Shown: in pieces, positions 11,543 to 45,456 of the stretch
Layout of the letters: each line of letters starts with the position of its first letter
How positions within the stretch are numbered: position 1 is the first letter of the stretch
From: a virus
Direction: 5' to 3' (one strand)
Virus record (IMG/VR): IMGVR_UViG_3300044732_000737
Coordinates: 13,818-77,817 of that record
DNA: 64,000 bases
The notes under the pieces: generated by a model
Seen by the model: only the letters and a program-made list of their open reading frames with translations
What the model was told of the DNA's origin: nothing
Database searches by the model: none
Position numbers and translations under genes: made by a program

Positions 11543-11565
11543 TCTCTCTTTAGCGTCCCCTGGTA
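11543..11565 (-). promoter_or_regulatory. Phage single-subunit RNAP promoter, copy 1 (TACCAGGGGACGCTAAAGAGAGA; predicted +1 at 11548)
   Basis: 23-bp motif found four times, always intergenic and in the sense orientation; aligns with the SP6 promoter. Confidence 0.85.
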
Positions 11566-11571
11566 AATTGA

Positions 11572-11997
11572 TTAATTTGGTTTAGTTGGCCAAATAACAT
11601 CAAAAGGATAACCTGATTGTGTGGTTATATCCCTAAGCTCTTGACGATAATTTGTCCAAGCTGTTTGTTTTTCTACACTTAATGGATTATTAGGTAATTG
11701 AGTCCAGTCAGAACTTGATAACAGCATATATCTCTTTCTTTTAACCTCAATTTCTTTTAGCTGAGAGTTTTCTACCCAAGAAAAAGTTGCATCATTCCAA
11801 AAACAGGAGTTTGATGGTTTTTCTGATTTCTTTATAACTGCACCATCCTGAAAATAATGAGTATCAGGTGCGCATAAACTATCTGTTTCTAGGAATATAT
11901 CTTCTGGATATTTTTGCTTTGTTACTTCAAAGGAATCTTCATCTAGTCCATAACCTTGTTGTAAAATGTTTTTAGATATTCTTGCATAAAATTTCAT
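11572..11997 (-). CDS. Tail fibre assembly chaperone
   Basis: C-terminal KRYMLLSSSDWTQLP...WTNYRQELRDIT.Q.GYPFDVIWPTKP signature. Confidence 0.85.
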   Translation of the reverse strand: MKFYARISKNILQQGYGLDEDSFEVTKQKYPEDIFLETDSLCAPDTHYFQDGAVIKKSEKPSNSCFWNDATFSWVENSQLKEIEVKRKRYMLLSSSDWTQLPNNPLSVEKQTAWTNYRQELRDITTQSGYPFDVIWPTKPN

Positions 11998-14900
11998 TAG
12001 CGTCTCCGAATAAATGCACTTAAAACAATGTTTTGAAAAGCGTAAGAACCACCATTACCAAAACCACCTGCTAATCCATAGGAATAACCATTTAAACTTA
12101 AAGTCTGAGTACCACTTGTACTAACTGTTGCTGTTGCTCGAATAACTTTAGAAGATACCCAGCCCTCTAAAGCTGTGATAGGACTAGTGTCACTTATGCC
12201 GCCAAGGTTTGTAATATTAGAACTCTTTGTTTCTGTAACAACAACTCCATTAAACTGAAGTTGAGCTCTTAAAACAGAAATGTAGGTGTACTCATCCCAA
12301 ATATAGGGATAAAGTGTATTAACCCTAGGATCAAAGGTTGCTTCAAGTAATACCACATCTCCTGCATTAGCATAAAATGAGATTGATGCAAAAGTATCAA
12401 CGAGAGGCCCGTATACAGAACCTTGCCACCATCTATGGAAACCATTATAAGAACCATATGCGGCTGTTGTAACAGCGTTAGTATTGATATTTCCAGTAGC
12501 AACTACATTACCATTAAGCGTCATTTGACTGCCATTATAGCTAATGTTAGTAGAACTATTACCTAAAGCAAAAGTACCAGTGCTATTTAGTATGCCACCT
12601 GATCCAGTCATTGAAGTACCAGATACAGCAGGAGAACCTCCTACTTGAAGAGAATTTGTAAATACAGTACCACTGTTGATTTTATCAGCGGTAATCGTAT
12701 TTGCAGCAATTTTACTTGCATCAATAGTTCCAGCGCCAATATTTCCAGCAGTTAATATGCCAACCTGAGCCGTACCTATAGCTGCGCCTGAAATGTATGT
12801 AGAAACATTACCGCTTGTAATTGTGTTTAGAGTAGCAAACCCACCAGCACCAAGAGTACCTAATGTTATATTACTATTTAATATACCAGCAGGAGCATTT
12901 ACTAAATCTGTTCTAACAGCGCCTAAACCACCAGCGGTAACTACGCCACCACCAGCACCATATAAAGTACCATCTGAACCAATTGAAATAGCACTATTAG
13001 CTACCGCTGTACCATTTCCAGTTCCAATACCATTAATGGTGTTCCCTGAAACACTAATTGCAGAATTGGCAACTGCAGTGTTATTACCAGTCCCAATACC
13101 AGTAATATTACCACCAGACACAGCTATTGCACTATTAGCAACTACTGTTCCAGTACCCGTACCAATACCTGAAAGTGCTCCATTAACAATATTAATTTCA
13201 TTATTAGCTACTACTGTTCCAGTACCTGTACCAATACCATTAATTGAGCCACTAGAAATAGTAATAGCTGAATTAGCAACTAATGTCCCAGTACCTGTAC
13301 CAATACCGCTAATAGCACCACCTGAAATAGTAATTTGGCTATTTGCAACAGCGGTGCCTGCACCAGTAGAGGTACCACGGATTATACCTGAAGCATCTAC
13401 AGATGTATTATTGGCTGCTAAGACCCAGCTACCAGAAATTTTCTGGTATAACTGGAAAATATCTGTTGCATAAAAGATATCACCATCTGCACCAGTAGGT
13501 CTACTTGCAATTGCACCTTGTGTAAATACATTTTTAGTTGCATCTAATGCACCTGAATAACCAAGACCACTAATTGTTACTGTACCACCCCCAGCATTAT
13601 TAAGTGTACCATTACTACTTAAGCTGATATTACTATTTAATATTCCAGCAGGAGCATTGCCTAGGCTAGTCTGTACTGCGTTAATACCAGTAGCTGTGAC
13701 TCCACCTGATGCAACAGGTCCACCAGAAACACTTAATGTGCCATTAGAATTGAGAGTTAATCCGATATTATTGTTTAAGATGCCAGCAGGAGCATTACCT
13801 AAGCTAGTTTGTACTGCGTTAATACCAGTAGCTGTAACTGTACCTCCACCTGCCCCAGACAAAGTACCATTTGATGCAATAGATATATTACTATTTAACC
13901 ATCCTGATGAAGCTGTAATTCTTGAAAAGTCAAGATTAGTCCCTGATCCAAAGATCACATTACCTGAAGCATCTTTAATTGTAAGTCCACGAGTATCAAT
14001 GTTACTTGGTACTACAACTTGCCCATTAAGTGTTATAACACTACCGTTATAAGTAATATTATTATTAGTATTACCAACGGCAAACTGACCATTTGAGTAC
14101 ACAACTGCACCTGCACCAGTCATTGTTGTACCGCTAATTTCAGCTGTACTAGATTTGATTGTACCAGATACTGTTAGATTACCTGTATTAGTTGTGATAG
14201 CTGATAGGCTACCTACTTTTAAAGCGGACAAATAAGGTACATTCCAAATAGTGTTATTTGTTACTGGATCATAAACACCATCAGATTGATAAACAGATTC
14301 ACCCGCACTAATAACTGGAGGAGTAGCTTGCCATACTGTATCTGCACCCCATGATCCATTTGCAGGATACGAATTAATACCAGAGGTAGTAATGGTAGAG
14401 GGTGTAGAAGCCAAAGAAGTTAATGTTGTTTTACTATAACAAATTCTAGCAGAGGCACCTTGTTGTCCAGGAGAACCAGGAGAACCGTTAGTGCCATTTG
14501 TACCAGCATAACTTATAGCAACTATACTGGCGTTAGTCCAGTTAATTTGAGTACTTGTAGTAGTTGCACTATCGGATATATTTACACTTGCAGCCCATAA
14601 GGTAAATCCTGGACTAGGCGGATTCTGAATTGTTGAATTCCAATCCGTAGGTACATTATTAAATGAAGATGTTGCCCAAGTATAAGTAGATGATCCTACT
14701 GGCCCTGCAGGTAAAGAGGCTGCCCAGCGATAAACTGTAGGTCTAGCTACTTGTAGTCCAGGAAGTCCTGTTGCACCATTTGATGTAATTGATGCTATAG
14801 TAACTCCACTTGACCAGTCTACAACGGTATCAACTGTGCCTCCAGCAGCTGTGATTGACTTTGTAGCAGTCCAAAGTTGAATGCCTGAAGTTCCTGGATT

Positions 14901-17819
14901 TGTAGAAATATAAGTCAGCCAGTTATTACCTCCCGCATAAGCGGAATTTGTTCCTGTAGTCCAATTATACGCAGAAATATTATTTGGGTTTCCGGGTTGA
15001 GTTGGAGACCATTGGTATAGTGTAGCTGTTGCATATTTAGCTCCAGGATCTCCTGGGTCTCCTTTAACTCCAATTCCAGTTGCACCAGTTATTGCCTTTG
15101 ATAAAGAAATTTCCTTTGAAAGAATAATGTTATCAATACCTAGAGTTAAATAAATAGTTGCATATTGATCATTAATTGCAGTTATAGTAACTACGCCTTG
15201 AGAAATAGTAGCATTACAACCTACTGGATTAATTGAGTATGAAATTTCTGCTGGAGGCACTACATTTAAACCTCTGTAAAGATACATCTCTACAGTTTTA
15301 GGTAGTTGACCAGCTAAGGGAACTCCATCTTTATTACAAGTAAAGGTTAACGAATCATTTGATAAAACTATTGCATAAGGTAAGGCATCTTCTGCAGGTA
15401 TTAAATTTGTCAACGCAGTTGTTGCCATGTTAGATAATCTACCTGCCTTGGACAACGCCCTTACACCAAAAATTGTTTTACTTATTCTTAGTGCTGGAAG
15501 ATTAAAGGTAGTATCTGTAGTTCTACCTAGCTCAGTCCATATAATTTGGTTGTTTACATCTATATTGCCTGGAATATAATAGTAGGTAATATAAGAGTCT
15601 AATGCACTTGTATCTACGCCAGTCCAAGATAATCGACCTGAAGAGTTTAAGATTTCAGTGTCTTGTTGTGTATAGGATAAGTTAGTAGGAGTGCCAAATA
15701 CAAAGTTGTAAATGTTAGGTGTTTTGATATATTCGTTATCGTTAACATTCCATGCCAACTGCGTAGAGTCAAACCTAGTAGCATTAACTTCACAAACACC
15801 TTCTTCAGTAATCTTTACTTCATTTACTCGTAAATAAAGATCAGTACCTACTCCTAGATTTAGAGTAGTACTATTTAGCTTTATAAAGTCACCTGGCTCT
15901 AAAAATTTGTCTTTGATTACATATTTAAATTGTATACCAAACGCACTACGGCTAACACGAACTAATTCTTCAGCCTTAGCTAGTGCATGGTAGTAGTCTG
16001 TAACACCATCAGCAAAGATATCTGTCTCTAATTCTAATCCGTTATCCTCGGCTTTCATTGCATTGTAGATAGCCGCATCATTAACAATAGTCAAAAAGCT
16101 AGTATAGTTTTCAGATCTAGTAGTCCAAAAGATAAATGCACCTTTACTGATTTTAACGGCAACACCTTTAGAGCCAACGTTATCATCAGTACCTTGTACT
16201 CGAATACGATACTCTGTATTTGCAGTTAAAGCAAAACTACCCGTCTTAGTAGTATTAAAATTTCCATGACTATCAGAGTAAACTGGAGTACCATTAGCAG
16301 TAGTTACTGTAATTGTACAATTATTATCCGCTGTAAATTCAATATTAAAAGTCCCAGTTTCTTTTACAAAGAACTTCCATGTTTGGTCAAAGGAAGAACC
16401 CGAACCCGACCATACCGCATATTTCTTAAGAAGATTACCACCTGCATTATCAGGCCAACCTTTGTCTTCTGCTACTGGATATTTAAATCCACCAATACCT
16501 CTTAGAGATGTACCTGAAACTTTTGGAGGCCAAGATACTGTATCTTCTTTGAAGTTTTCGGATTCATTGTGGAACCTTACAGTACATTGATTTAGTCTCT
16601 CACTAGAGCTTGGCCAATTAATATTGACTGTGTTATCTAAGATTAAATCAGAATCTGTTAAGTTTGCAGCAATAGTTATTGCTTCATTATTTGCAGGATA
16701 TTGCAAATTAAGTTTATATTTTCCACCTGACCATACCAATCTGGCATCACCCATTGTAGAAAGAATAATCTCTACATTTTCTCTTAATGGCTTTTGAGTA
16801 TCAATAATTGCATTACACTCGTATAACCTTACATCTCTAGAAGCAGCTAATGGGGTTATTCCTTCTGCTCCAGAGCTACCATCTGTAGGGAAATAAACCT
16901 TACCACCAACAAGCGCATCCTGTAATACTACTTGATCGCAAATTACTTTTGCATTGTAAAAAGATTCTAAGTCTATCAAAGAGATATCCATACCCTTGCC
17001 AGAGGTTTTATCTAGTAAATAGTCTAGTAAACACAAAGCAGAATTGTTAGAATAATTTAGTGTCGGTGTTAAAGCGTAAGTATAATTATCTACTGTACCT
17101 GACCTAATAATATTCTTTATCTTTTTACCTTCAATAAAAAACTGTAGCATAGGTACGCCATTAAATGCAGGATTATCCCTATCTAATTTTACTACAACAG
17201 AAGCGTATGCAATACCTACAGTATTTTTTACTTGTGTAAATACAGAATTAACTCTTTCAGGATTATTAGCCGACATTACACTATCTGCAATGGCAGAATC
17301 ACCGTAGTGTAAATCAATACGAGTTCCCGAATTTAGTTTAGTCTCTGTATAAATATTTGGGTTTTCAGCATCTCCACTATCGTACGTGGTAGTAGCAGAT
17401 GAATTTAAGTCCGGATCATCAGAATAGCGGGACTCATCATAGACAACATCATACACATTGCTAATTGGACCCTGACATAAGGCCTGTTGGAAAAACAAAA
17501 ATTCATTGTTCTTTCCATTTATATTGTTATTAAATCCAGGATTAGTAATTACTTTATCGCTATTAGGTGTTGTATATACATAATTGCTAGCTACATTATG
17601 GTAGGATCTAACCCCACCTACCTTTGCTCTTCCGTAAACAATAGGTAAGGTGACACCCTCTCCTTCCACTACAAGCTCATAACCTTTTCTTGCTTCTGCA
17701 GCTGCTTGGGCTGCTTTCTTCATTTTTCTAGCTTGAACAATTTGATATGAGATTGATGCAATTGTAATCCATGTGCTTACTGTTAAACTAAAAATTTTGT
17801 AAGCTAATATCTCTGCCAT
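11997..17819 (-). CDS. Tail tip / host-specificity protein (lambda J-like central fibre)
   Basis: LPIVYGRAKVGG, NNSALCLLDYL, RLNQCTVRF motifs, FN3-like segment, collagen-like and Gly/Thr repeats. Start taken at 17819 (TAATG overlap with upstream gene) rather than 17834. Confidence 0.85.
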   Translation of the reverse strand: MAEILAYKIFSLTVSTWITIASISYQIVQARKMKKAAQAAAEARKGYELVVEGEGVTLPIVYGRAKVGGVRSYHNVASNYVYTTPNSDKVITNPGFNNNINGKNNEFLFFQQALCQGPISNVYDVVYDESRYSDDPDLNSSATTTYDSGDAENPNIYTETKLNSGTRIDLHYGDSAIADSVMSANNPERVNSVFTQVKNTVGIAYASVVVKLDRDNPAFNGVPMLQFFIEGKKIKNIIRSGTVDNYTYALTPTLNYSNNSALCLLDYLLDKTSGKGMDISLIDLESFYNAKVICDQVVLQDALVGGKVYFPTDGSSGAEGITPLAASRDVRLYECNAIIDTQKPLRENVEIILSTMGDARLVWSGGKYKLNLQYPANNEAITIAANLTDSDLILDNTVNINWPSSSERLNQCTVRFHNESENFKEDTVSWPPKVSGTSLRGIGGFKYPVAEDKGWPDNAGGNLLKKYAVWSGSGSSFDQTWKFFVKETGTFNIEFTADNNCTITVTTANGTPVYSDSHGNFNTTKTGSFALTANTEYRIRVQGTDDNVGSKGVAVKISKGAFIFWTTRSENYTSFLTIVNDAAIYNAMKAEDNGLELETDIFADGVTDYYHALAKAEELVRVSRSAFGIQFKYVIKDKFLEPGDFIKLNSTTLNLGVGTDLYLRVNEVKITEEGVCEVNATRFDSTQLAWNVNDNEYIKTPNIYNFVFGTPTNLSYTQQDTEILNSSGRLSWTGVDTSALDSYITYYYIPGNIDVNNQIIWTELGRTTDTTFNLPALRISKTIFGVRALSKAGRLSNMATTALTNLIPAEDALPYAIVLSNDSLTFTCNKDGVPLAGQLPKTVEMYLYRGLNVVPPAEISYSINPVGCNATISQGVVTITAINDQYATIYLTLGIDNIILSKEISLSKAITGATGIGVKGDPGDPGAKYATATLYQWSPTQPGNPNNISAYNWTTGTNSAYAGGNNWLTYISTNPGTSGIQLWTATKSITAAGGTVDTVVDWSSGVTIASITSNGATGLPGLQVARPTVYRWAASLPAGPVGSSTYTWATSSFNNVPTDWNSTIQNPPSPGFTLWAASVNISDSATTTSTQINWTNASIVAISYAGTNGTNGSPGSPGQQGASARICYSKTTLTSLASTPSTITTSGINSYPANGSWGADTVWQATPPVISAGESVYQSDGVYDPVTNNTIWNVPYLSALKVGSLSAITTNTGNLTVSGTIKSSTAEISGTTMTGAGAVVYSNGQFAVGNTNNNITYNGSVITLNGQVVVPSNIDTRGLTIKDASGNVIFGSGTNLDFSRITASSGWLNSNISIASNGTLSGAGGGTVTATGINAVQTSLGNAPAGILNNNIGLTLNSNGTLSVSGGPVASGGVTATGINAVQTSLGNAPAGILNSNISLSSNGTLNNAGGGTVTISGLGYSGALDATKNVFTQGAIASRPTGADGDIFYATDIFQLYQKISGSWVLAANNTSVDASGIIRGTSTGAGTAVANSQITISGGAISGIGTGTGTLVANSAITISSGSINGIGTGTGTVVANNEINIVNGALSGIGTGTGTVVANSAIAVSGGNITGIGTGNNTAVANSAISVSGNTINGIGTGNGTAVANSAISIGSDGTLYGAGGGVVTAGGLGAVRTDLVNAPAGILNSNITLGTLGAGGFATLNTITSGNVSTYISGAAIGTAQVGILTAGNIGAGTIDASKIAANTITADKINSGTVFTNSLQVGGSPAVSGTSMTGSGGILNSTGTFALGNSSTNISYNGSQMTLNGNVVATGNINTNAVTTAAYGSYNGFHRWWQGSVYGPLVDTFASISFYANAGDVVLLEATFDPRVNTLYPYIWDEYTYISVLRAQLQFNGVVVTETKSSNITNLGGISDTSPITALEGWVSSKVIRATATVSTSGTQTLSLNGYSYGLAGGFGNGGSYAFQNIVLSAFIRRR

Positions 17820-19002: not shown

Positions 19003-19006
19003 AATT

Positions 19007-27694: not shown

Positions 27695-27740
27695 AATTAT
27701 CCTTAAATACTATATAATACTACCTAGGGGAGGCCTCAGA

Positions 27741-27763: not shown

Positions 27764-27785
27764 AAAAGGGGAAATTAATCCCCTA
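27763..27785 (-). terminator. Rho-independent terminator after major tail protein
   Basis: Minus strand AGGGGA-UUAAU-UUCCCCU followed by UUUU, about 6 nt after the stop codon. Confidence 0.75.
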
Positions 27786-29095: not shown

Positions 29096-29593
29096 TTAGT
29101 TTGCCCTCCACCATTGGCTAGAGCCTTGGTTTACTAAAAGTGGTTTTAGGTATTTCTTAACAAGACTAGGAACAACGGGTGTTCTAGTTGTGTCATTATT
29201 ACTATCTTTCAATGTAATCGTACCAATAGAAATTTCTTCAAAGTTTTGAGATTTATTATCTAACAAATTTTCATTAGACAATAAATGATGAGCCATTTCT
29301 AAAACAGCTTGTTTCATTCTTTTTGGAATTTCAGATTCACCATAAGTAATACTTCGCCCTAATCTAGGATCAAAAGTTGAAGCCCCTTTACGAGGCCACG
29401 CAAGACTCTGTGTGGAACTGACAGCAACACCAATAAATTGATTTTCATCAAGTAAAAGAGTTGCAGTCACTAATGCTGACTCTTGGTCATCATCCTGAGC
29501 ATTTATCCATGCACCCGCATCAATACGAGTATCAAAGTATGCTTCAGCTTCGACCATAGTTACATATGTGTTTGTACCTAGGACTAGTGCCAT
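29096..29593 (-). CDS. Head-tail adaptor protein
   Basis: NTYVTMVEAEAYF...QSLAWPR...IPKRMKQAVLEMA motif; immediately after the capsid gene. Confidence 0.8.
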   Translation of the reverse strand: MALVLGTNTYVTMVEAEAYFDTRIDAGAWINAQDDDQESALVTATLLLDENQFIGVAVSSTQSLAWPRKGASTFDPRLGRSITYGESEIPKRMKQAVLEMAHHLLSNENLLDNKSQNFEEISIGTITLKDSNNDTTRTPVVPSLVKKYLKPLLVNQGSSQWWRAN

Positions 29594-30702: not shown

Positions 30703-30722
30703 TTAAAAAATCTCCTGTGATT

Positions 30723-31418: not shown

Positions 31419-31484
31419 CTTTGTTTTCCTTTGGCACAGCCATTTAATTTTAATTTTTTAGGGTTTAGTTACAAACTTAAACTC

Positions 31485-34400
31485 TTACGGTCCAATACCA
31501 TACCAATCCATACCTTTAGGTATAGGAGCTAGTATATCTTTTCTCGTAATTTTGTTGCGAGGATTTAGTAAGCCATCCTCAATAGCTTTTTGGCGAAGTC
31601 GATTGTATGTTTCATTTGACATACCTTCTTCTTTTAGTGCCAGTAATGTTTTCTCTATTGTCTCACCTTCTAAAGCATCTGCATAGATTTCTCTAAGAGC
31701 TACTTTGGACTTTGCTGCTTGTCCTATGTTGGTGAAGAAAGCATCGTGAATCGTTGCGGTTTCAATACCACTTTTACGACCCCATAAATGAAATCTTCTT
31801 ACAATAGCGGCATCATTCATGTGGTTACCGTTAACCCCCATGCCAATGCCAGCCCTTTGGAGGCTTGATTTTCCTAGAAGTGAAGCATCTTCTGCTCGAT
31901 CTTCGTAAATATTACGGACCATCCTGTTAGCTTCTTTGTCATAGAACTCAATGCTAGTTTGGATTTTAGGTCTGTATCTCTGGTATAAAGTCTTACCATC
32001 AAATGTTACCCAAGGTACATCGACCTTCTGAGTTTCATCAACGTAAGCTTTAGCAGCTTCTTTCCAGAATTGTACGAATTTTTGAGTTACTGGTGCTCTC
32101 TCAGCTAGTCTCCGAGACATAATCTCTGACACTGCCTTGAAGTCTTGAGGACCAATTAGTCCCTTACGAGCATTCATTAACTTATCGACAAACGCTTCTA
32201 CGTCTGGGTGAGAATCACGAGCGTGTGCTAAAAGTTCTTGCCCCACAGAGGTTTCACCTTCAACAACTTCGTTTAACTCACGTTTTAATTGTTTAAGACC
32301 AAATACGACATTTTCAGCTCCTAGCCTATCTGCCTCTTTAATCTTTGCATCTATAATATTAGTTACTCCACGAAGTTCTTCACGGGTAACAACAGTATAT
32401 CCTTTTGTCTCTAACACTGAAGCAAACTTAGCTTCAATATTAGCTGCTTGTGTTGCTTTACCTGCACCATAGAAAGAAACCATGTTTTGTGCTTTTGCAG
32501 CCTTTTGAAGATCTGTCCACTGAACATTAGCATCTCTCAATCCTTGTATTTTCTGAAACTCTGGATCAGACACTGTATCCATAGCTACTAAGTCATACAA
32601 ACGATTTTTTTGTAATGTAGGTAATACGTTTGAGTTGATTGAAATATCTCTATCCCCAGTACTTAATCCGATGATCTGAGCACCAGAGGATGAAGCATCA
32701 TTCTCAATCATTAATTTTGTCTTATATGTCGCTAGTTTATTTACATCAGTAAAGTCACCACCTACATGATCATATATACGAGCATACTCAATAGCTAGTC
32801 TGGAGATTTTTGGAATCTCTTCTGCCTCAGTAGCTCTGATAATAGGATGCTCTAGAAATTCCCTGATACGCCTATCACGTTGGGTAGTTTCCCTCATTAG
32901 GCGACCTAAACTTAAAATATCTCTTTGATTTCTCATAAAGATTTCCATCCGACCTGCTTGTGTTAACGCCTCAGTAGCTGGACCAATCATAGAACCAGTT
33001 TGAATCATTAACTCCTGAACAATTTCAGGTGTAACGGCCTCTGCCTTAGCAGTATTCAAGAACGGACGAACAACTTCACCACCAGTAGGTGTTAAGAAAC
33101 CTTGATAGTAAACACGACCACGACCATCGATATTAGCAACAACGCTAAATGGCTTTCCAGTATCTCGATGATACTTTACAGTCTGCATAAAGCTATATCC
33201 CTGATCTCCACGAGTCAAAATAAGTTTTCTAAAGTCATTTAAGTCATCATACTTTTTTACATTTCCACGAGGATCTCTAAAGCGAACAACATCTTCCATA
33301 AATCCAGCATACTCATTATCAACCTCATATTTCACTGACATTGTGTGATTAAGCATATCAGCAAAATCACGATCAATTAGTACTCTGTCATAATTAGCAT
33401 TAGCTCTACGTGTAATAATCGGAATACCTGTGTTATTGCCTCTAGCATCAAAATAAGTCTTAGCTCCAGGTCTTACATAAAGCTTATCTCTATCAGAGTT
33501 AATACCAATTCGTTTTGCTAATAAAGCACTACGATTAGCCCTTTGTAAGTTGAGCATATCTTTATTTAAGATCTGAACTTCACGACTAACAGTATCTCTC
33601 CAAGGACCACTAGCACGACCAGTCTCAAGATCAACAACTGATCTCCTAGTCTTGCCACGCATAAGTACACGGATGTAGCCTTTGTCTTTTAATGCTGTAA
33701 GAATCTGCGATCCATCAGCATGGTAGTCTTGTAGTGTAGGCTTAAAGAATGGGAAGTCTGCGACATTCCAAGATTCTCTTAGTGTTTTACCTACATTAAT
33801 TGCCAATGAATCGTAGTCAGTTGACTTACCATCAGCAACAACAGTCAATACCTTTGATAAGGTATCAATTGCTTTCTTGTCGTTTAAACCGCCCTCTACT
33901 AATTGATTTAAATAACTTTGTCTTCGTTTACCGAATAAAAACTCTAAGTCCACAATCTTACGATAGTCTTCTCTTCTGTTTCTTAAGAATTCATCAATTA
34001 ATCTTTCACTAGGTACTTTGTCTTTAAAAAAGAGTTTAGCTCCAGGAACATTACTTAACAAGAATTTAACTACTTTGTCTTTGAAGTTATCAACACCAAT
34101 TCTGGGAGCACCTCTAAACCAAGTATATACAGGAGTTCTTCCAGTATAATACAAAGATCTAGCTAATGGCCTACCTTCTGTAGTAGCCCAATTACGAACA
34201 TAACGTTGATTATCAATATTATTTTCGATAATCTCGTCAAATGTATAGTACTTACCAAAGATCTGAACTTTAGCTGGCTCTCCAGCGACCCCATAAGAAT
34301 CAAACTGCTGAGATCTAGCTCTTGATCTACGATCTAAAATACGGCTTGTGTTAACTACAGAATATTGCATTTCACCACGAGTAACATTCATAAAGTTAAC

Positions 34401-35903
34401 CCATGGTTGCTTATCGTTATTGTATCGCTCAAAAATAACACGTAGATTCTCTGCAATAGCAGTCTGTTGATTTACAGATACTGAATCATCTAAGCTTTCA
34501 ACGAATTGTTGAATCCATGCTTTTTGTTCTTGATTAAGAGCCTTAGAATTTTTAATAAAGTCTATACGTTCTTGTAATACATTAAAGTCTGGATCATAAA
34601 GTAAAGTAGAACTTTGTTCGCCTGTGAAAGGATCAAAGCTATTGTTACGTTCATCAAACTCATTGTTTGCTCTAATTCGAACTGATCGTTTACCTGCTAG
34701 AGTAGTACCACGATAATCTACTAAAGAAATAGTCTGAGCAGTATTCTCAGTGTCTGCAATATACATTGCCTTTAACTGTTTAGTAGCCTCTGTATTCCTC
34801 ATTAGTTCATATGGTCTAGCCACATTAATTGCAAACAGATTAGACTCTGCCTCGGCTACAGCTGACTGCCTAGTTGGGAAGAAACTTGTTCTTGCATTAT
34901 CAAGCTTCCTTAATGCAGCAATGCTTAGTTGTTGACCTTTAGCAGTCGTAAATGCTTTTACATCCAAAATACCTTTCTGTAATAGTCCAGCACGCTCCTC
35001 ACTACCTAGATGTTTAACTTGAACCATCATAGGCTGGCGCTTAAGCCAAGAACCGTAAGTTTCTACTGGTGGTAAACTACCATCAACAAGTTTTTCAGAA
35101 GTTTCTCTTAGCTTGTTAACCTTTACTCTTGTATCTTTTGCCTCAGCAGCTTTTAATAGTTCTTCTTTGTTCTTTAAAACAGGAACCATAGAGCTACGGC
35201 AATTCCAGTGAAGTGGTGGTCTAAATCTTAGATCATCAATCTTGTATACTTGGCCATCATGGTGTGCACAGACTCTTGAAGTTCTATTGTCTAGTACAGC
35301 AGTAAATCTGTAACCTTTTAAAACCTCTTTATTACGATCCATTACTAAATTAAGCGCTTGTGCTTGTGTATTAGTAATAGCAGTCCTAACTAAAACCTTA
35401 GCCTGAACCTCAGTCAGGGTGGTTGTTTTAATTACATCTGAAATAATTTCTTTTACTGGCTTATTGTCTGCTAAACCAGATTTAATCTTTCCATCAATCC
35501 TAGCAAGTTCACTCGTACCAACAGTATCAAAGTGATCCCTTAAGCTTTTGGATGCTGTAATGTTAGGTCCAATAAGTTTAGGAATAGCATCACTACCCCT
35601 AGGCTTTTGAACTCTGAAGAATGAACCAGCACTCTTCTCTAAATTGTTAGCATGAAAGCTTACAGAGGCATCTGCATAGTCACTAACTGAATTGCTAGCA
35701 ATCATGTGCAACTCTTTTGTTGCTCGAGTTACCTCTGGCTTTACATCGGCCTTAATGTTCTTTGTTAAGAGTACTCTAAGGCGCTTTTGATGTCTACGAA
35801 TGCCCCTACTTACATTAGTGGAGGTCTCCGCTTCATATAGTCTTGTATCAGCTAAGTGCTGTACAATTCTGTCATAAATTTCCGTATTAATAGGAGTTGG
35901 CAT
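31485..35903 (-). CDS. MuF/SPP1-gp7 minor head protein fused to a T7/SP6-family single-subunit DNA-directed RNA polymerase
   Basis: N-terminus: LDNRTSRVC..DG...PPLHWNCRS (MuF). C-terminus: DGRGRVY, motif A ENDASSSGAQ, motif B KAQNMVSFYG, WVTFDG..Q.Y..IQT specificity-loop entry, NGNHMND, motif C IHDAF. Start probably ATG 35903 (AAGGGG RBS); track start is 35921. Confidence 0.92.
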   Translation of the reverse strand: MPTPINTEIYDRIVQHLADTRLYEAETSTNVSRGIRRHQKRLRVLLTKNIKADVKPEVTRATKELHMIASNSVSDYADASVSFHANNLEKSAGSFFRVQKPRGSDAIPKLIGPNITASKSLRDHFDTVGTSELARIDGKIKSGLADNKPVKEIISDVIKTTTLTEVQAKVLVRTAITNTQAQALNLVMDRNKEVLKGYRFTAVLDNRTSRVCAHHDGQVYKIDDLRFRPPLHWNCRSSMVPVLKNKEELLKAAEAKDTRVKVNKLRETSEKLVDGSLPPVETYGSWLKRQPMMVQVKHLGSEERAGLLQKGILDVKAFTTAKGQQLSIAALRKLDNARTSFFPTRQSAVAEAESNLFAINVARPYELMRNTEATKQLKAMYIADTENTAQTISLVDYRGTTLAGKRSVRIRANNEFDERNNSFDPFTGEQSSTLLYDPDFNVLQERIDFIKNSKALNQEQKAWIQQFVESLDDSVSVNQQTAIAENLRVIFERYNNDKQPWVNFMNVTRGEMQYSVVNTSRILDRRSRARSQQFDSYGVAGEPAKVQIFGKYYTFDEIIENNIDNQRYVRNWATTEGRPLARSLYYTGRTPVYTWFRGAPRIGVDNFKDKVVKFLLSNVPGAKLFFKDKVPSERLIDEFLRNRREDYRKIVDLEFLFGKRRQSYLNQLVEGGLNDKKAIDTLSKVLTVVADGKSTDYDSLAINVGKTLRESWNVADFPFFKPTLQDYHADGSQILTALKDKGYIRVLMRGKTRRSVVDLETGRASGPWRDTVSREVQILNKDMLNLQRANRSALLAKRIGINSDRDKLYVRPGAKTYFDARGNNTGIPIITRRANANYDRVLIDRDFADMLNHTMSVKYEVDNEYAGFMEDVVRFRDPRGNVKKYDDLNDFRKLILTRGDQGYSFMQTVKYHRDTGKPFSVVANIDGRGRVYYQGFLTPTGGEVVRPFLNTAKAEAVTPEIVQELMIQTGSMIGPATEALTQAGRMEIFMRNQRDILSLGRLMRETTQRDRRIREFLEHPIIRATEAEEIPKISRLAIEYARIYDHVGGDFTDVNKLATYKTKLMIENDASSSGAQIIGLSTGDRDISINSNVLPTLQKNRLYDLVAMDTVSDPEFQKIQGLRDANVQWTDLQKAAKAQNMVSFYGAGKATQAANIEAKFASVLETKGYTVVTREELRGVTNIIDAKIKEADRLGAENVVFGLKQLKRELNEVVEGETSVGQELLAHARDSHPDVEAFVDKLMNARKGLIGPQDFKAVSEIMSRRLAERAPVTQKFVQFWKEAAKAYVDETQKVDVPWVTFDGKTLYQRYRPKIQTSIEFYDKEANRMVRNIYEDRAEDASLLGKSSLQRAGIGMGVNGNHMNDAAIVRRFHLWGRKSGIETATIHDAFFTNIGQAAKSKVALREIYADALEGETIEKTLLALKEEGMSNETYNRLRQKAIEDGLLNPRNKITRKDILAPIPKGMDWYGIGP

Positions 35904-35948
35904 ATTTCCCCTTGATACCATACAATATATGCATCAAGGATGCCCGTA

Positions 35949-38300: not shown

Positions 38301-38311
38301 TAGCTAAATCC

Positions 38312-38494: not shown

Positions 38495-38503
38495 TTTAAT
38501 CCT

Positions 38504-38950: not shown

Positions 38951-38959
38951 AAGAATTCC

Positions 38960-39508: not shown

Positions 39509-39516
39509 AATGCTCC

Positions 39517-39669
39517 TTAGAAAGGTAGGTATTTGTTGATTAGGCCATTAACGATTCTGTCTGAGAGATCATTTGGTAAATATTTAAGGAAGCCTAGGAA
39601 ATATAAAGCTACAGCACCGTAGCAAAATATTTTAAAGCATAGGTCTGCAGTCTTCTGATACTCGTTCAT
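39517..39669 (-). CDS. Small membrane protein (50 aa)
   Basis: Below the track cut-off; ATGA overlap with upstream gene; MNEYQKTADLCFKIFCYGAVALYFLGFL... Confidence 0.6.
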   Translation of the reverse strand: MNEYQKTADLCFKIFCYGAVALYFLGFLKYLPNDLSDRIVNGLINKYLPF

Positions 39670-40160
39670 CGTCCACACCCACCTGGAGGACATAGATTGC
39701 TAAGTTCGTTAATGCCAACAAACAAGAGAAACAGTACAAAGAACACAGCACCAACAGCAATAGCTATTTGTGTATAGTACTCTTCATCCTCTTTAGCCCT
39801 CTTCTCTGCATCTTTAAGCTTTCGCATAGCAATGGCATCATCACGATCCATCTCAGCTTGGCGAGATTTAATTTTATTCCATACATCTATCTTACCTGTC
39901 TGCATAAAGAGCATCTTTAACTCTTCCTCAAATGCTCGAGCTTGCTCAAGAGCCATTTCGATTTGCAGTGCAGTGCCCATATTAGAGCCTTTGCCAGACT
40001 GTTTAGCTTCGATCATAGCTCTAGTGGCTACGCTCTTAGCATCAAACATCTTACCGATCATAGGGGCTAACGAGCCCAGATCATTGGCTACCTTACTAGC
40101 CTTCTTAACCATGCTAATTGCTGATTGTATACCAGCAAGAGCTGTGATTGGATCAATCAT
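39666..40160 (-). CDS. Hypothetical membrane protein
   Basis: MIDPITALAG start, coiled coil, C-terminal TM. Confidence 0.75.
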   Translation of the reverse strand: MIDPITALAGIQSAISMVKKASKVANDLGSLAPMIGKMFDAKSVATRAMIEAKQSGKGSNMGTALQIEMALEQARAFEEELKMLFMQTGKIDVWNKIKSRQAEMDRDDAIAMRKLKDAEKRAKEDEEYYTQIAIAVGAVFFVLFLLFVGINELSNLCPPGGCGR

Positions 40161-40312
40161 TTTCTTTTCCCTTTATCCGTTTTGTCATTGTTCTTCCACT
40201 TTAAACAACTGACCTTACGGTTATAAACGGGTCCCTGCCATGTCCATCTCTCACAGACGGGGGCTTTTGGGTCATAACCAGCTAACACTAAGGTAAGAAG
40301 AATAGTAGACAT
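40157..40312 (-). CDS. Small hypothetical protein (51 aa)
   Basis: Fills the gap exactly, with an ATGA overlap; CERWTWQG...VSCLKW. Confidence 0.6.
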   Translation of the reverse strand: MSTILLTLVLAGYDPKAPVCERWTWQGPVYNRKVSCLKWKNNDKTDKGKRK

Positions 40313-40927
40313 TTACACACCTAGTACATGGAGTGCATGTGCATAGTGCTTTTTACGGTCCTCGATACCAATGGTACCTCCGTTAATTTTTCTTGTTAAT
40401 GTCTCTATATCGCCTTGATCTGCCCATTTATTTAAGTTATTAGTTTCCCAGAACCAGCAAGCACTCTGTGCAGCACCTTCAAAGGTACTCATGTACTCAC
40501 TAGCTTCCTCTGCGGAAATACCAATAGACTCAGCAAACCAAAAATAATTATCTTTACCTGTTAACTGTATTAGGCCTCTACCAGAGTACCTATATCCATC
40601 TCCTGAAGCCTCATCTCCATTACCCATACGATTAGCGTAGACCTTGTTAGCAATAGCTTCAGGCTTACCTGCGAACTGCCTTGCTAGTTCATCATTAGGG
40701 AAATACTTAGGGAAGATTCTTCGGAGTGTCTCCCAACGATAGTTGAGATTTTCTTTAATCATTGTAAACTCGCCTGACTCATGAGCACATTGAGCAACGA
40801 ATGCTGCAATACGCTTCTCGGTATCAATACCATAGTCGGGTAGGAGTTGTTCTAAGGCATGATGCCAATATGTGACATGCTTATTACGTGGAATAAGTTG
40901 TCTAAGCTGATCTAGTGTTAGTATCAT
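40313..40927 (-). CDS. Endolysin, glycoside hydrolase family 19
   Basis: AAFVAQCAHESG, YSGRGLIQLTGKDNY, TRKINGG motifs. Confidence 0.92.
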   Translation of the reverse strand: MILTLDQLRQLIPRNKHVTYWHHALEQLLPDYGIDTEKRIAAFVAQCAHESGEFTMIKENLNYRWETLRRIFPKYFPNDELARQFAGKPEAIANKVYANRMGNGDEASGDGYRYSGRGLIQLTGKDNYFWFAESIGISAEEASEYMSTFEGAAQSACWFWETNNLNKWADQGDIETLTRKINGGTIGIEDRKKHYAHALHVLGV

Positions 40928-41187
40928 TTAAGCGCCTCAAACAGTTTCTTTTGTTGTGTATACCACTCACTCCAACCTTCAACACGGTTAGCACATAAGT
41001 GATATTCGGAATAGTTAGTCACAATGGTCTTTGTGAGTTCTGATAGCTCAGGCTTTTCGTCTGCTACCTTTAATTTAGGGCACAGAGTAAGTAACTCTTT
41101 AGGTGCCTCTGGGAACTTGGCCACTACAGGGACTACTGTAGAGCATCCTGATATTACTAGGGTAGACAATAGTATAAGCTTCTTCAT
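40924..41187 (-). CDS. o-spanin (Rz1-like lipoprotein)
   Basis: Lipobox ISGC after a short signal peptide; Pro-rich; overlaps the end of the i-spanin gene. Confidence 0.8.
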   Translation of the reverse strand: MKKLILLSTLVISGCSTVVPVVAKFPEAPKELLTLCPKLKVADEKPELSELTKTIVTNYSEYHLCANRVEGWSEWYTQQKKLFEALK

Positions 41188-41573
41188 TGTGTAGCCGCCT
41201 TATTGTGTATTGTAATAACCTCTGGAGGGATCTTACATTGATCATTGTATTTAACAATCTCACGATCAATATATTTGATCTGCACATCAGCAGCTTCTTT
41301 AACGATCTTCTCTTTAGTTACTATTTTGGTTACTATTTGTGTGTTAACCTCAGACTTCTTAGCCTCTAATGCTGCTATTTGTTCCTCTAGTGATTTAACC
41401 CTAGCTTCCCAGACATTATTACAAGACTTATATCCTGCAATAAATAATGCAGCAAATATTAAACCTACAGCAATAGGTCTATAACGGTCAAACTCTTTAA
41501 CTACAAAACCTAGCAAGCCCACCATAAAGACAATAAACACTAACCACATTGGTATATAGTTAATTAAAAACAT
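41184..41573 (-). CDS. i-spanin (Rz-like)
   Basis: N-terminal TMs, coiled coil, C-terminal CKIPPEVITIHNKAA. Confidence 0.75.
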   Translation of the reverse strand: MFLINYIPMWLVFIVFMVGLLGFVVKEFDRYRPIAVGLIFAALFIAGYKSCNNVWEARVKSLEEQIAALEAKKSEVNTQIVTKIVTKEKIVKEAADVQIKYIDREIVKYNDQCKIPPEVITIHNKAATQ

Positions 41574-41607
41574 TGTAATCCTTTTGGCTAACGCCAGTTA
41601 TAAAGAA

Positions 41608-41676
41608 GAGCAGTAGTGGGATTCGAACTCACATTCCAGAGATAACGTCTGATTCTACCTATTGAACTATACTACT
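41608..41676 (-). tRNA. Atypical tRNA-like element (shortened anticodon arm, no encoded CCA; identity undetermined)
   Basis: Acceptor AGTAGTA/TACTGCT, TA-GTTC-AATAGGTA-GAAT D arm, GTGAG-TTCGAAT-CCCAC T arm. Anticodon/variable region is 3-4 nt short and lacks U33. Confidence 0.6.
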
Positions 41677-41765
41677 CTAGTGACGCCTTTTACTGTAGCG
41701 ACAACAGCCCTAAGGTGGGTTCTTGCTGAATATCTCATGAACTTAATCACTTGACTATCAGATTG

Positions 41766-42056
41766 TTATTTAAATTTGTTTGTCCACTTAACTACCCATG
41801 CCCAATAAGCAGCACTCATTCTGCCCTTCTGGATATCAGCCTTATGTCTAGCATAGAAGGCTTCTCTACGTGCTTGGTAGGAGTCTGACTCACCATCCTT
41901 GGGAGGAGACCCAGTAACACCTTGAGCACCAAAGCGAATAAGCTTAATAGTGTCACCTTCTTTGGCTAACACTGCATGTGAGTTAGTTGAATTACCTGGG
42001 GTTTTCTTTGGTTTGTTATAACCTTCAAAGGTTTCACCACGATATTCAATAGCCAT
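41766..42056 (-). CDS. Conserved phage hypothetical protein
   Basis: GYNKPKKTP...VLAKEGDTIKLIRFG...FYARH...SAAYWA pattern recalled from phage packaging regions. Confidence 0.75.
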   Translation of the reverse strand: MAIEYRGETFEGYNKPKKTPGNSTNSHAVLAKEGDTIKLIRFGAQGVTGSPPKDGESDSYQARREAFYARHKADIQKGRMSAAYWAWVVKWTNKFK

Positions 42057-42136
42057 AATTATTTCTTCCTACGCTTGTGATAAGATTCTTCACGCTTTTC
42101 ATTATCACGTTTCTTTTTATTTGACATAATAATCCT

Positions 42137-43462
42137 TTAAAACATAAAGCCTTTAGTAACTGTCTTAGTACCTGAACGAACAGGAAATAAGTATTCAACA
42201 GCATAACGAAGAGCATCTGTCCAGTGTTCTACGTTCTCTGCCTTAGATATCTGTGCTGTATTTGGATTGTTTTCAACCCATACAGTTCTTTCAAGAGACC
42301 TAATAGTGTGTTCTGCTCTAGGGTGTACATACATATCGATATCACCATGAGCATTCTTAAACTTACGGTTAACAGCAGCTACTGAGTCAACAATAGGAGG
42401 AGCAGCCTTGTGTGCTCTACAGATAATACCATGACTCTCTAAGATGGAGAAGTCAGTAGCGCCAGCAACAGCACTAGTCTTCCTAGCTCGTCCTGCAGGG
42501 TCTGGATAAGCGAATACTTTATGACCTTTATCCTTGAATTGTCCTTTAAGCTTCTTAGCTAATTGTTCAGTATCGAGAACATTCTGCATGTCCTCTAAGA
42601 TATGAATCTGTCCAGCTCTAACAGCAAAGACTACAGCAGCCATAATGCCAATGTTAAAGTCAATAGCCACATGGACATCTTCTTTGTTTGTTGTCTCTAC
42701 ATTGAAGTATGGTAGATCAGCAGTCACATGAGTCTTACGATCAAACATGTAGAATACCTTAGCGCCAGAGTCCTCAAAGGAACACTCATACTCTCGAGCA
42801 AACTTCATAGGGTCAATCAGACGCTTAGTCCTCTCGATCTCTTCCACAGAGAGATATGGGGAGTCCCTATAGGTATATCTAAAGGTCTTCCAACGGTTGT
42901 CCATAGACTCAAAGTTAGTCATGTCGTAGAAGTAATTCATACCCTTAGGTGTACCAATAATAAGAGCCTTATGGTTACCTGCCCAACGTGTAGTCATAGC
43001 AGGTTGAATAATAGATTCCCAAGACTCTTTAAGTCCTGGCTGACCAGTCCAGTCAGAGACCTCATCTCCAACAACAAAGTACTGACCCGATCCCCGCATC
43101 CTCTCAGAGGCTTCATAGGACCATAGCTTAAGCTTCACATTGTTCTGAAACCAGAATGTTCCAGCTGTCTGAGATGACTTCTCAGCATAATCCTCTAAGC
43201 CTAGGTTGTAGGCTAGTAGAGGCCAATAAATATCTAACGACTGTTGGTATGTTGGACAGATAATCGAGACGTTCTTATTAGGAACATCTTCAGGCATCTC
43301 TAGCAACTCATGAACAGCCATTGTAGCAGCAACACTAGCAAGGTAACTCTTACCAAAGCCTCGTGAAGCTACTGTAGCAGCATATCTAGTGCCACCCTTT
43401 TCTGAGAACAAATACTTTAATACTTCAGACTGACCTCTGTGTAATTTAATTTCATTTGACAT
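42137..43462 (-). CDS. terL: Terminase large subunit
   Basis: Walker A SRGFGKS, Walker B VVGDE, IIGTPKG, nuclease AIDFN and HWTDALRY. Confidence 0.95.
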   Translation of the reverse strand: MSNEIKLHRGQSEVLKYLFSEKGGTRYAATVASRGFGKSYLASVAATMAVHELLEMPEDVPNKNVSIICPTYQQSLDIYWPLLAYNLGLEDYAEKSSQTAGTFWFQNNVKLKLWSYEASERMRGSGQYFVVGDEVSDWTGQPGLKESWESIIQPAMTTRWAGNHKALIIGTPKGMNYFYDMTNFESMDNRWKTFRYTYRDSPYLSVEEIERTKRLIDPMKFAREYECSFEDSGAKVFYMFDRKTHVTADLPYFNVETTNKEDVHVAIDFNIGIMAAVVFAVRAGQIHILEDMQNVLDTEQLAKKLKGQFKDKGHKVFAYPDPAGRARKTSAVAGATDFSILESHGIICRAHKAAPPIVDSVAAVNRKFKNAHGDIDMYVHPRAEHTIRSLERTVWVENNPNTAQISKAENVEHWTDALRYAVEYLFPVRSGTKTVTKGFMF

Positions 43463-43669
43463 TTAAACGATCACATCAACCTTATCTTTGGTTACGATGT
43501 CCTTCTTCTTATTACATTGTCTAAGCTCTTCAAGTTTTTTATTGAACTGAGCTAACTCGTATCGTGCTTGGATGCCTTCTTGGAAGATCTTGTTGGAGGC
43601 TTCTTTTAGTTGCATGATAGCATTTGTATAGTACTCAATGCTGTATTCTGCTGCTGATTGTACTCTCAT
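43463..43669 (-). CDS. Hypothetical protein
   Basis: 68 aa coiled coil, AAGGA RBS, abuts terL. Confidence 0.65.
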   Translation of the reverse strand: MRVQSAAEYSIEYYTNAIMQLKEASNKIFQEGIQARYELAQFNKKLEELRQCNKKKDIVTKDKVDVIV

Positions 43670-43736
43670 ATGTATTCCTTTTTATTGTATACGTAACTGT
43701 AATAATTTTATCTATTTTATTTCAGTGTATACTTAA

Positions 43737-44135
43737 TTATTCATTTGTGAAGACAATCTTAAGCGGCTTTTTATCTTCAATTACTTGTTCACTCTTCTCA
43801 GGCACCTGTCTGTAACCATATCGCATGAGCGTATTCATCACACTTGTCTGGATGTTCAAGAGGTTCGCTAAGGCCACTGCAGAGTACCTTGTTTGGCCAC
43901 TCTCCATAGCATTAATCTTATCCTGCACCTTGTAGTAGTGATCTACAAGTTTCTCAATAGGGTCAAATCCTAGTGTTTGAAGCTTCTTAACTGATTCTTT
44001 TGAATAGATTGTGGTAGTTCCCTTTGGGCGACCCTGTCCAGGTCTAAGTCCACCACGGGTTCTCTCTGACACATTTGGGTCTTGAACTACCCCAGTTGAG
44101 GTATCTTTGACCTCTTTGTTTGTTGAGGTAGTCAT
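43737..44135 (-). CDS. Terminase small subunit (putative)
   Basis: RGGLRPGQGRPKG motif and LGFDPIEKL helix; upstream of terL. Confidence 0.7.
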   Translation of the reverse strand: MTTSTNKEVKDTSTGVVQDPNVSERTRGGLRPGQGRPKGTTTIYSKESVKKLQTLGFDPIEKLVDHYYKVQDKINAMESGQTRYSAVALANLLNIQTSVMNTLMRYGYRQVPEKSEQVIEDKKPLKIVFTNE

Positions 44136-44141
44136 AATGTA

Positions 44142-44282
44142 TTATTTCTTATTCTTTGGTTTATATTTCTTGGCTAAATCTAGAGCAATAGCTACTGCTT
44201 GAGCATGAGGTTTACCCTCTTTTTCAAGAGTCCTAATGTTAGCACTCACGGTTTTATCACCGTAGCCCTTCTTAAGCGGCAT
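44142..44282 (-). CDS. Small basic phage protein (46 aa)
   Basis: Below the track cut-off; MPLKKGYGDKTVSANIRTLEKEGKPHAQAVAIAL, GGAG RBS. Confidence 0.7.
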   Translation of the reverse strand: MPLKKGYGDKTVSANIRTLEKEGKPHAQAVAIALDLAKKYKPKNKK

Positions 44283-44562
44283 TTTTAGCTCCACGTCTGG
44301 TTGTGGTTTTAGCAGGGGTCTTTACAACAGGAACAATATTGTTACTGTGTAATTGAATCTTTAGATCAGAGATCATAGTAAGCAGCTCTTCTTTGTCTCT
44401 GAGCAACTTATCAACCTTGCCCTCAAGCTTCTTAACTTCAGACATGAGCAGTTCAGTCAATTGATCGTGAGCTTCTTGTCGTTGCTTATCTTTGCTATGC
44501 AAGTAGGTCCAGAAGGCACCTGTACTTAACACAACAATAGCCATTTGAATAATCGATTCCAT
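44272..44562 (-). CDS. Hypothetical membrane-anchored coiled-coil protein
   Basis: One TM then a coiled coil; start moved to ATG 44562 (AAGGA RBS). Confidence 0.65.
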   Translation of the reverse strand: MESIIQMAIVVLSTGAFWTYLHSKDKQRQEAHDQLTELLMSEVKKLEGKVDKLLRDKEELLTMISDLKIQLHSNNIVPVVKTPAKTTTRRGAKNAA

Positions 44563-44813
44563 TTTAATTCCTTTTAGTATAAAATCCATAGACACTGGGA
44601 GACACCTTCTACCTTGAACAGGTAGTGTCTCTACACAAGTGTTACAGAATGATATTTAAATAATATTTTAAAGTACTCTTTAAAGTACTCCTTTAAAAAT
44701 ATTTTATAATATTATTTTTAATAAACAACAACAATAATTAATGTACCTTAATGCTACCGCTATTAAGTTACTCTTTTAATATTAACCCCCTAAATCCCCC
44801 TTTTGGATAGGAT

Positions 44814-44836
44814 TCTCTCTTTAGCGTCACCTGGTA
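44814..44836 (-). promoter_or_regulatory. Phage RNAP promoter, copy 3 (TACCAGGTGACGCTAAAGAGAGA; predicted +1 at 44819)
   Basis: 22/23 match to copies 1 and 2; heads the packaging-lysis-head gene run. Confidence 0.85.
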
Positions 44837-44845
44837 CTTTTTGAC

Positions 44846-44922
44846 AAAAAAAAAAAGAATTACCCCTCCAGAGTACCCTCTAACCACCCCCGAAGGAGCA
44901 GTCAAAGAGTACCCTGGAGGGG
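44846..44922 (-). terminator. Long hairpin (28 bp, cUUCGg loop) plus U11 tract
   Basis: Arms 44863-44890 and 44895-44922; all 7 non-Watson-Crick pairs are G-U on the minus strand. Confidence 0.75.
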
Positions 44923-44946
44923 AGGTTTAAGTTAAGCACTTAAGGG

Positions 44947-45420
44947 CTATGCATAGAATAAATGGTTTCCAATTGTAACTGTGTGAGTTAACTTCTTAGA
45001 CCATTTGGGTAAGACGTAGTTAGCATGATAGAATAATGACCCCTTTGTAGGATCTTTGAGTCTGCCCTGTAAGTAGTTAGTAGCAATAGCATGAGCTACT
45101 TGGTACTGTGATTTGTTCTTTGGATAGTGGTTCTTTAATAGCTTTACCCAAGAGAATTGGTAGGGTTGATACACAACCTTACACACAGAGGAGGGATAGC
45201 CCTGAGCCAGTAGTCTGTTTATTGTGACTGCTGCTACTGCTATCTGACCTTTAATAGATTCTCCTCGAGCCTCATGGTAAATGTTATGAGCTAGACAATC
45301 TATATCTTTCTTTCCAAAGGCTAAAATAGGCTTAGGAATAGTGTGAAATACAGCTGATTCAGTTACAGTGCTTGTTTGCATAGGAAAAAGAATCAGCAAC
45401 AAAATTGCTAAATTTCTCAT
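44947..45420 (-). CDS. Cell wall hydrolase, SleB/Hydrolase_2 family
   Basis: CLAHNIYHEARGE...AVAAVTINR...PSSVCKVVYQPYQFSW...GSLFYHA...IGNHLFY; signal peptide; start ATG 45420 (or GTG 45429). Confidence 0.92.
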   Translation of the reverse strand: MRNLAILLLILFPMQTSTVTESAVFHTIPKPILAFGKKDIDCLAHNIYHEARGESIKGQIAVAAVTINRLLAQGYPSSVCKVVYQPYQFSWVKLLKNHYPKNKSQYQVAHAIATNYLQGRLKDPTKGSLFYHANYVLPKWSKKLTHTVTIGNHLFYA

Positions 45421-45433
45421 AGTTTGCACCTTC

Positions 45434-45456
45434 TTTCTCTTTAGCGTCCCCTGGTG
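45434..45456 (-). promoter_or_regulatory. Phage RNAP promoter, copy 4 (CACCAGGGGACGCTAAAGAGAAA; predicted +1 at 45439)
   Basis: 21/23 match to copy 1; fits in the short gap before the hydrolase gene. Confidence 0.82.

Follow-up and report, generated by a model that had tools for sequence, protein, structure and literature searches.

The stretch of DNA considered here, 64,000 nucleotides (nt) long and called the window throughout, comprises bases 13818-77817 of the complete 77,817-bp IMG/VR record IMGVR_UViG_3300044732_000737, and it raises the question of what four near-identical 23-bp repeats do in the gaps between its late genes, and which protein recognizes them. The repeats are almost certainly promoters of the T7/SP6 type, read by a phage-encoded RNA polymerase (RNAP) to switch on the virion and lysis genes, and the features of the sequences point to the phage's own canonical RNAP of 722 amino acids (aa) as the reader, at a probability of roughly 0.8. 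The record carries a 127-bp terminal repeat, the signature of a circular assembly, and the genome is complete; the phage is of siphovirus type and related to the roseophages DSS3_VP1 and DSS3_PM1 (Naomiviridae), its closest cultured relatives. It has 28 proteins in common with DSS3_VP1, the dCMP deaminase and DNA polymerase homologues among them; its RNAP shows 49% identity, and a second, divergent polymerase domain joined to a MuF head protein (the MuF-RNAP fusion) 48.7%. Open reading frames (ORFs) of every length lie on the minus strand.

A first-pass annotation of the window had listed four copies of the repeat, all intergenic, on the minus strand and in sense orientation, and it placed them exactly. 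The 23-nt pattern has exactly four matches in the window, all on the minus strand, where dinucleotide shuffles lead one to expect 0.01 (none of 100 shuffles reached four), and each occupies a short interval separating two ORFs; with every gene encoded on the minus strand, the copies are all in sense. Across the full 77,817-bp genome there is no additional copy of the pattern at up to three mismatches and none in antisense, so that the equal frequency of antisense copies that was to speak against promoters is not what the genome contains, and a genome-wide check for repeats returned no other non-coding repeat of similar length. A position weight matrix (PWM) scan of the sense strand of the whole genome gave, in descending order, 38.5, 38.5, 36.3 and 35.2 bits among the four consensus copies (P1 to P4 in Table 1), and then 34.9 and 24.0 bits for two variant copies, P5 and P6, with a best antisense score of 9.3 bits. 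The count of four is thus correct for exact consensus copies, but it is not the full set, P5 and P6 having been missed.

Reference promoters were taken from the T7, T3 and SP6 genome records, the SP6 promoter being AATTAGGTGACACTATAGAAG (L126:8411). Like the T7 promoter, the element is a 23-bp asymmetric sequence running from -17 to +6, whose start is a G and whose initially transcribed region is rich in purines, and alignment to promoters of this type yields the same predicted +1 positions that had been proposed at the outset (Table 1). In the core from -7 to +1, CGCTAAAG matches six of the eight positions of CACTATAG, with an initiating G as in the T7, T3 and SP6 genome promoters. From the T7 promoter it differs at bases -17 to -6, and -17 to -14 reads TACC instead of being AT-rich. 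The earlier observation that P3 matches the SP6 promoter at 13 of 15 positions from -13 to +2 holds against the genomic SP6 sequence and includes GGTGAC at -12 to -7; the other copies match at 12 of 15, and the differences from SP6 fall at -17 to -14, -6 and -2. Membership of the SP6 group was considered and rejected, the specificity loop of the phage RNAP being unrelated to that of SP6 in alignment. Because this RNAP is only about 28-32% identical to the Autographiviridae enzymes and has a loop unlike that of SP6, the likeness to SP6 is one of DNA-level resemblance and not of group membership, although the agreement at -12 to -7 makes cross-reading of P3 by SP6 RNAP a real possibility. The orthogonality of the pair, which the first-pass annotation had thought possible, is thus a conjecture.

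The core motif is present in 83 IMG/VR stretches. Over 67 distinct copies, every position between -17 and +6 carries 1.0-2.0 bits of information, and -18 and +7 each have less than 0.6 bit, matching the footprint of a T7 promoter; the outer positions -17 to -15 and +4 to +6, which were not imposed by the search, still hold 1.0-1.5 bits. Relatives carry copies at the same four gene junctions, including that between g074 and g075, and complete relatives have five to six sense matches and no antisense match each. Two further samples were drawn by homology to proteins, one to the RNAP and the other to the major tail protein, and are hence unbiased by the motif. In the first, a variant copy stands directly past the RNAP stop codon in 22 of 22 loci with 63-98% RNAP identity whose downstream sequence was examined, and at 59-60% identity a promoter copy lies 0.7-1 kb downstream of the RNAP; the flanks cannot be aligned between sub-clades. 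Of the 34 distinct junctions at 70% identity or above in the second, 33 have the motif at the P2 site, and there are relatives in which the stem of the terminator upstream is altered with compensatory pairs and the promoter is unchanged. Some genomes have a variant of their own at every copy seen, ACATTAAAG in L107 and L115 and CTTAAG in L101.

Beyond this clade the motif changes in form and keeps its strand. DSS3_VP1 has at least 12 sense-only copies of the TAATAGGGTGCGTTAAAGAG type, compared with six here, and two of them are the syntenic counterparts of P2 and P3, one downstream of the major tail gene (the copy at 29394) and the other ahead of the terminase block. The two motifs have the skeleton TA..AGG....CG.TAAAGAG in common; that of DSS3_VP1 has AT and not CC at -15/-14, GTG, TTA or TGA at -10 to -8, T at -5 and GAGGGG as its initially transcribed sequence, and its predicted starts are at the G after TTAAA, for example in the copies beginning at 2331, 7406, 19235 and 29394. 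This motif family is found here and is not described in the DSS3_VP1 paper. In a clade whose RNAP is 48% identical, the further diverged ATACTTGACCCTTATGA recurs in five identical sense-strand copies, the first about 190 nt past the RNAP gene. The motifs of these diverged clades can be aligned with the one in the window, on the sense strand only. Among still other homologues of the major tail protein (L215-L237, 53-58% identity), the junction syntenic with P2 has a different recurring motif, roughly ATACTTAAAYGAC. This may be the promoter family of a clade further removed, to which the 81.5-kb contig behind L123 and L234 belongs.

The four consensus copies precede the lysis, packaging, head, tail and fibre genes. 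P4 is followed by a 19-nt leader that contains an AAGGTG ribosome-binding site, and then by the gene of a signal-peptide cell-wall hydrolase (ATG at 45420), which forms a monocistronic unit. P3 heads a block with the large terminase, a tRNA-like gene, spanin-like and endolysin genes, PhoH, the portal, the MuF-RNAP fusion, the scaffold, the major capsid protein, the adaptor and the major tail gene. P2, downstream of the major-tail-protein gene, lies upstream of the tail-completion gene, those of tail proteins of 2455 and 1945 aa, and a fibre-assembly gene. P1 leads into two small genes, a 2976-aa fibre protein with an S74 chaperone domain and a 1495-aa protein, a unit closed by a strong terminator near genome position 8900. 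The terminator hairpin between P4 and P3 has a folding energy of -55.3 kcal/mol (z = -6.6; none of 200 shuffles folds as well). Sites resembling host sigma-70 promoters are not enriched in the late region, where 41 were found and 50 were expected. The first-pass annotation had all copies ahead of late genes, and this is correct for the four consensus copies, but the two variants serve the DNA-metabolism region. P5 departs from the consensus at -9 and in the initially transcribed bases, and both variants have GCAC after the start where the consensus copies have GAGAGA. The core of P6 is invariant in relatives although the protein encoded around it is 74-80% identical and the flanks differ. Sequence and placement suggest that P5 and P6 form a weaker, class II-like set for the DNA-metabolism genes, a layout parallel to that of classes III and II in T7, where identical consensus copies precede the virion genes and variants precede the genes of DNA metabolism. 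The position of P5 right after the RNAP gene likewise recalls phi1.1A of T7, 26 nt past gene 1, and the similarly placed phi1.05 of T3. A seventh promoter-like site, inside the RNAP gene, matches at 14 of 14 positions from -13 to +1 and scores 15 bits; it was set aside, as its synonymous positions vary freely in relatives, and it is probably a by-product of coding sequence, or functional in a sub-clade only.

Several further observations concern the leaders and the block behind P3. Beyond +6, P1 and P2 have about 45 nt of transcribed leader in common, including CTCCCCTAGGTA; this stretch is also retained in many relatives, and its predicted folds are weak. The leader of P3, about 250 nt long and AT-rich, includes GAGTACTTTAAA, two direct repeats each with the palindrome AGTACT, which may be a site for a regulator or part of a structured leader. 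A 45-aa ORF that overlaps P3 and spans the terminator hairpin is probably spurious, and that hairpin is far stronger than the other terminators of the genome. In the interval from the terminase to the lysis genes, ARAGORN reported a 'tRNA-Stop', whose anticodon, TTA, would decode UAA; no recoding is evident, every ORF being open under table 11.

Which of the two polymerases reads the motif is a separate matter from its being a promoter. The first-pass annotation had assigned the repeats to a phage single-subunit RNAP, and their size, strand, position, conservation and likeness to the T7, T3 and SP6 promoters all agree with this; it had also taken the fusion for the enzyme, whereas the layout and the covariation of the specificity loop favour the 722-aa RNAP. 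The latter, encoded 6.6 kb before the start of the window, is a canonical T7-like single-subunit enzyme (Pfam RNA_pol, 270 bits; E = 5e-62 against T7 RNAP chains) that keeps the equivalents of the T7 residues D537, D812 and the specificity-loop arginine R746. Catalytic aspartates, loop arginine and hairpin/U-run terminators are thus common to this phage and T7; the differences are an enzyme about 160 aa shorter than the 883-aa T7 RNAP, a siphovirus-type phage, a genome of 77.7 kb and a second RNAP domain. A 7-aa gap, in a low-confidence alignment, falls where the AT-rich recognition loop of T7 RNAP aligns and coincides with TACC in the promoter. In T7 RNAP, N748 contacts the promoter at -10/-11. 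Its equivalent in the 722-aa enzyme is K where -12/-11 is GG, in the phage's own clade and in DSS3_VP1, and Q or L where these bases are CT, in the 48% clade (three clades only), and in DSS3_VP1 the second strand of the loop differs, as do promoter bases -10 to -8. With the T7/T3-like layout and the existence of a separate class of early motif, this suggestive covariation is the reason for favouring the 722-aa RNAP as the reader.

The alternative that the 23-bp motif belongs to the RNAP domain of the fusion, alone or alongside the 722-aa enzyme, is unlikely, though not without merit. The fusion retains DxRGRVY and polymerase motifs A, B and C (IHDAF), the last three conserved in relatives, which is to say a complete motif set, with a loop of T7-like length at the position of the specificity loop; and the phage's own clade, G001, G004, DSS3_VP1 and G002 all conserve it alongside the motif family. 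Its MuF domain and portal neighbour suggest, however, a protein that is packaged, injected and the first to act, and yet the PWM scan of the genome places no copy of the 23-bp motif ahead of the early genes or the RNAP gene; a separate conserved motif stands exactly there in all three clades. The fusion loop is, moreover, more alike between DSS3_VP1 and the G002 clade, the pair with the greatest difference in 23-bp motif, and a fusion that read the motif would leave the canonical RNAP with no promoter class. Conservation of the fusion loop was tried as an arbiter between the two polymerases and given up as not decisive, both loops varying between clades. Readers of the motif aside, the fusion gene is itself interrupted in places: in the 48% RNAP-identity clade (G002:C1:38442-41444; L157, L158) an insert of about 940 nt, likely an intron or homing element, splits it just before motif B, and in EBPR siphovirus 1 a gene for an HNH endonuclease lies between its two halves. 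A search of the literature on MuF-RNAP fusions turned up nothing relevant.

It is also conceivable that the motif is a cis element of another sort, for example a regulator's operator, a site of RNA processing, or a signal for packaging or replication, an idea that draws on the derivation of the promoter reading from sequence instead of mapped 5' ends and on the leader that P1 and P2 have in common, through which part of the repeat could act as RNA. This is very improbable, as the motif is asymmetric with no operator-type dyad, has a footprint of exactly -17 to +6, and has the CTAxAG start region and purine-rich initial transcript in common with T7, T3 and SP6 promoters; its copies are always in sense, right after terminators and ahead of operons, one of them stands just past the RNAP gene, a position also seen in T7 and T3, and six copies would be out of keeping with a packaging or origin signal. 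Chance, or a recent duplication with no function, can be given next to no weight: the similarity of the P1 and P2 leaders is all that speaks for it, 0.01 copies are expected, and orthologous sites retain the motif down to 59-70% protein identity, with flanks that can no longer be aligned. Against the assignment to the 722-aa RNAP as promoters stand several points nonetheless. One tail-gene junction, L201 at 81% identity, has no motif; the covariation comes from three clades, and the fusion loop varies between them as well. Hairpins in the 5' leaders were tried as evidence for transcript starts and dropped, the folds from +1 to +45 being no better than shuffled (z = -0.2 to +1.6), so that they add no support. 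The literature yielded nothing on promoters of Naomiviridae or Noahvirus, and the DSS3_VP1/PM1 paper has no promoter analysis. Finally, the motif's sequence, strand, position, conservation and covariation can be read off directly, while transcription start, polymerase and timing are deduced by sequence comparison, for this phage and its relatives alike.

A second conserved motif stands at the head of the early region, just past the late terminator, and is a candidate promoter for the injected fusion or for host RNAP. Its elements are, in order, an A-tract, GTGAG(A) or GTGGG, about 11 nt, TCTATAAT or TCTATAATGAAGAA, and GAAGAA, and it is found in all three clades despite RNAP identities of only 46-49%. 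Its spacing does not fit a sigma-70 promoter: the GTGAGA block is at a distance of 13 nt from TATAAT, and at 16-18 nt there is no hexamer resembling TTGACA. The conserved GAAGAA after TATAAT is also more reminiscent of an initially transcribed sequence than of a sigma-70 discriminator, and the motif showed no conserved hairpin. As to its reader, we infer that an injected fusion has about an even chance, host RNAP a distinctly smaller one, and anything else a smaller one still. In the order of events that would follow, the early genes and the RNAP gene would be transcribed from this early motif; newly made RNAP would start at the variants P5, right after its own gene, and P6, ahead of the DNA-metabolism genes; and the same enzyme would start at the near-identical P4, P3, P2 and P1 for the hydrolase, packaging, head, tail and fibre genes, initiating in each case at the G following CTAAA, with the hairpin/U-run terminators delimiting the transcription units.

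A cascade of this kind has a partial precedent in N4, which has two phage polymerases of the T7 family, one of them (the virion RNAP, vRNAP, 3,500 aa, which acts before RNAPII) carried in the virion and using hairpin promoters, and which transcribes its late genes with host RNAP (PMC4496689). The present phage likewise has two T7-family RNAPs, one apparently virion-associated, and two classes of motif, early and middle/late; it differs from N4 in that the candidate virion enzyme is a MuF fusion and the late genes have phage-type promoters. DSS3_VP1 and DSS3_PM1 have a siphovirus morphotype, and deoxyuridine (dU) substitutes for deoxythymidine (dT) in their DNA (PMC8323127). The present phage encodes homologues of two DSS3_VP1 proteins, the dCMP deaminase (37.5% identity) and the T7-like DNA polymerase (38.8% identity), so that its own DNA, by analogy, may carry dU in place of dT as well. 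It is a tentative proposal, more doubtful than not, that transcription is largely or wholly independent of host RNAP, with a packaged and injected fusion reading the early motif ahead of the early and RNAP genes and the 722-aa RNAP reading the 23-bp promoters, both possibly on dU-DNA as the Naomiviridae would suggest. If so, the phage would be a siphovirus with a cascade like that of N4, though assembled from different components.

Table 1. Positions of the predicted promoters, terminators and other features discussed in the text.
Feature	Position	Coordinates of	Strand	Description
P1	11543-11565	window	minus	consensus late promoter (predicted), predicted +1 11548; junction of g074 and g075; PWM 38.5 bits
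P2	27741-27763	window	minus	consensus late promoter (predicted), predicted +1 27746; junction of g066 and g067
P3	44814-44836	window	minus	consensus late promoter (predicted), T at -10, predicted +1 44819; junction of g041 and g043
P4	45434-45456	window	minus	consensus promoter (predicted), C at -17, A at +5, predicted +1 45439; junction of g040 and g041
P5	5015-5037	genome, outside window	minus	variant copy, 34.9 bits; starts 5 nt past RNAP stop codon
P6	63185-63207	window	minus	variant copy, putatively class II-like, 24.0 bits; within 3' part of ORF 63017-63508, upstream of dCMP deaminase homologue
Rejected site	6273-6295	genome		inside RNAP gene
Terminator	27769-27783	window	minus	hairpin and T-run; T-run abuts -17 of P2; closes P3 block
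Terminator	44847-44922	window	minus	28-bp hairpin, UUCG loop and U11; ends P4 unit just upstream of P3
P1 leader stretch	11504-11542	window	minus	in common with P2
P2 leader stretch	27702-27740	window	minus	in common with P1
P3 leader repeats	44660-44700	window	minus	two direct repeats with AGTACT
Canonical RNAP	5042-7210	genome	minus	722 aa
MuF-RNAP fusion	31485-35921	window	minus	1478 aa; N-terminal MuF (SPP1 gp7-like) head protein, C-terminal divergent T7-like RNAP domain
tRNA-Stop	41607-41677	window	minus	anticodon TTA
dCMP deaminase homologue	62643-63059	window	minus	
DNA polymerase homologue	230-2107	genome	minus	T7-like
Early motif	about 8840-8890	G000:C1, outside window	minus	head of early region
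Early motif, relatives	7487 and 7693	L098		
Early motif, relatives	1048	L101		
Early motif, relatives	4088	L112		
Early motif, relatives	35812, 36259 and 67796	DSS3_VP1		

Mining metagenomes for pairs of RNAP and promoter is already established practice (PMC13029058), and the compact 722-aa T7-like RNAP with its defined 23-bp promoter is a candidate expression tool, for which the sister clades offer natural variants of promoter and loop. For experiments, the target shifts from the fusion to the canonical RNAP. The promoter set is of an ordinary and known kind, newly defined for a little-studied group of phages: it provides the first promoter set and transcription map, with promoters, terminators, operons and a likely split into classes II and III, for an uncultured clade related to the Naomiviridae, and it predicts a homologous set of promoters in DSS3_VP1, a cultured phage.

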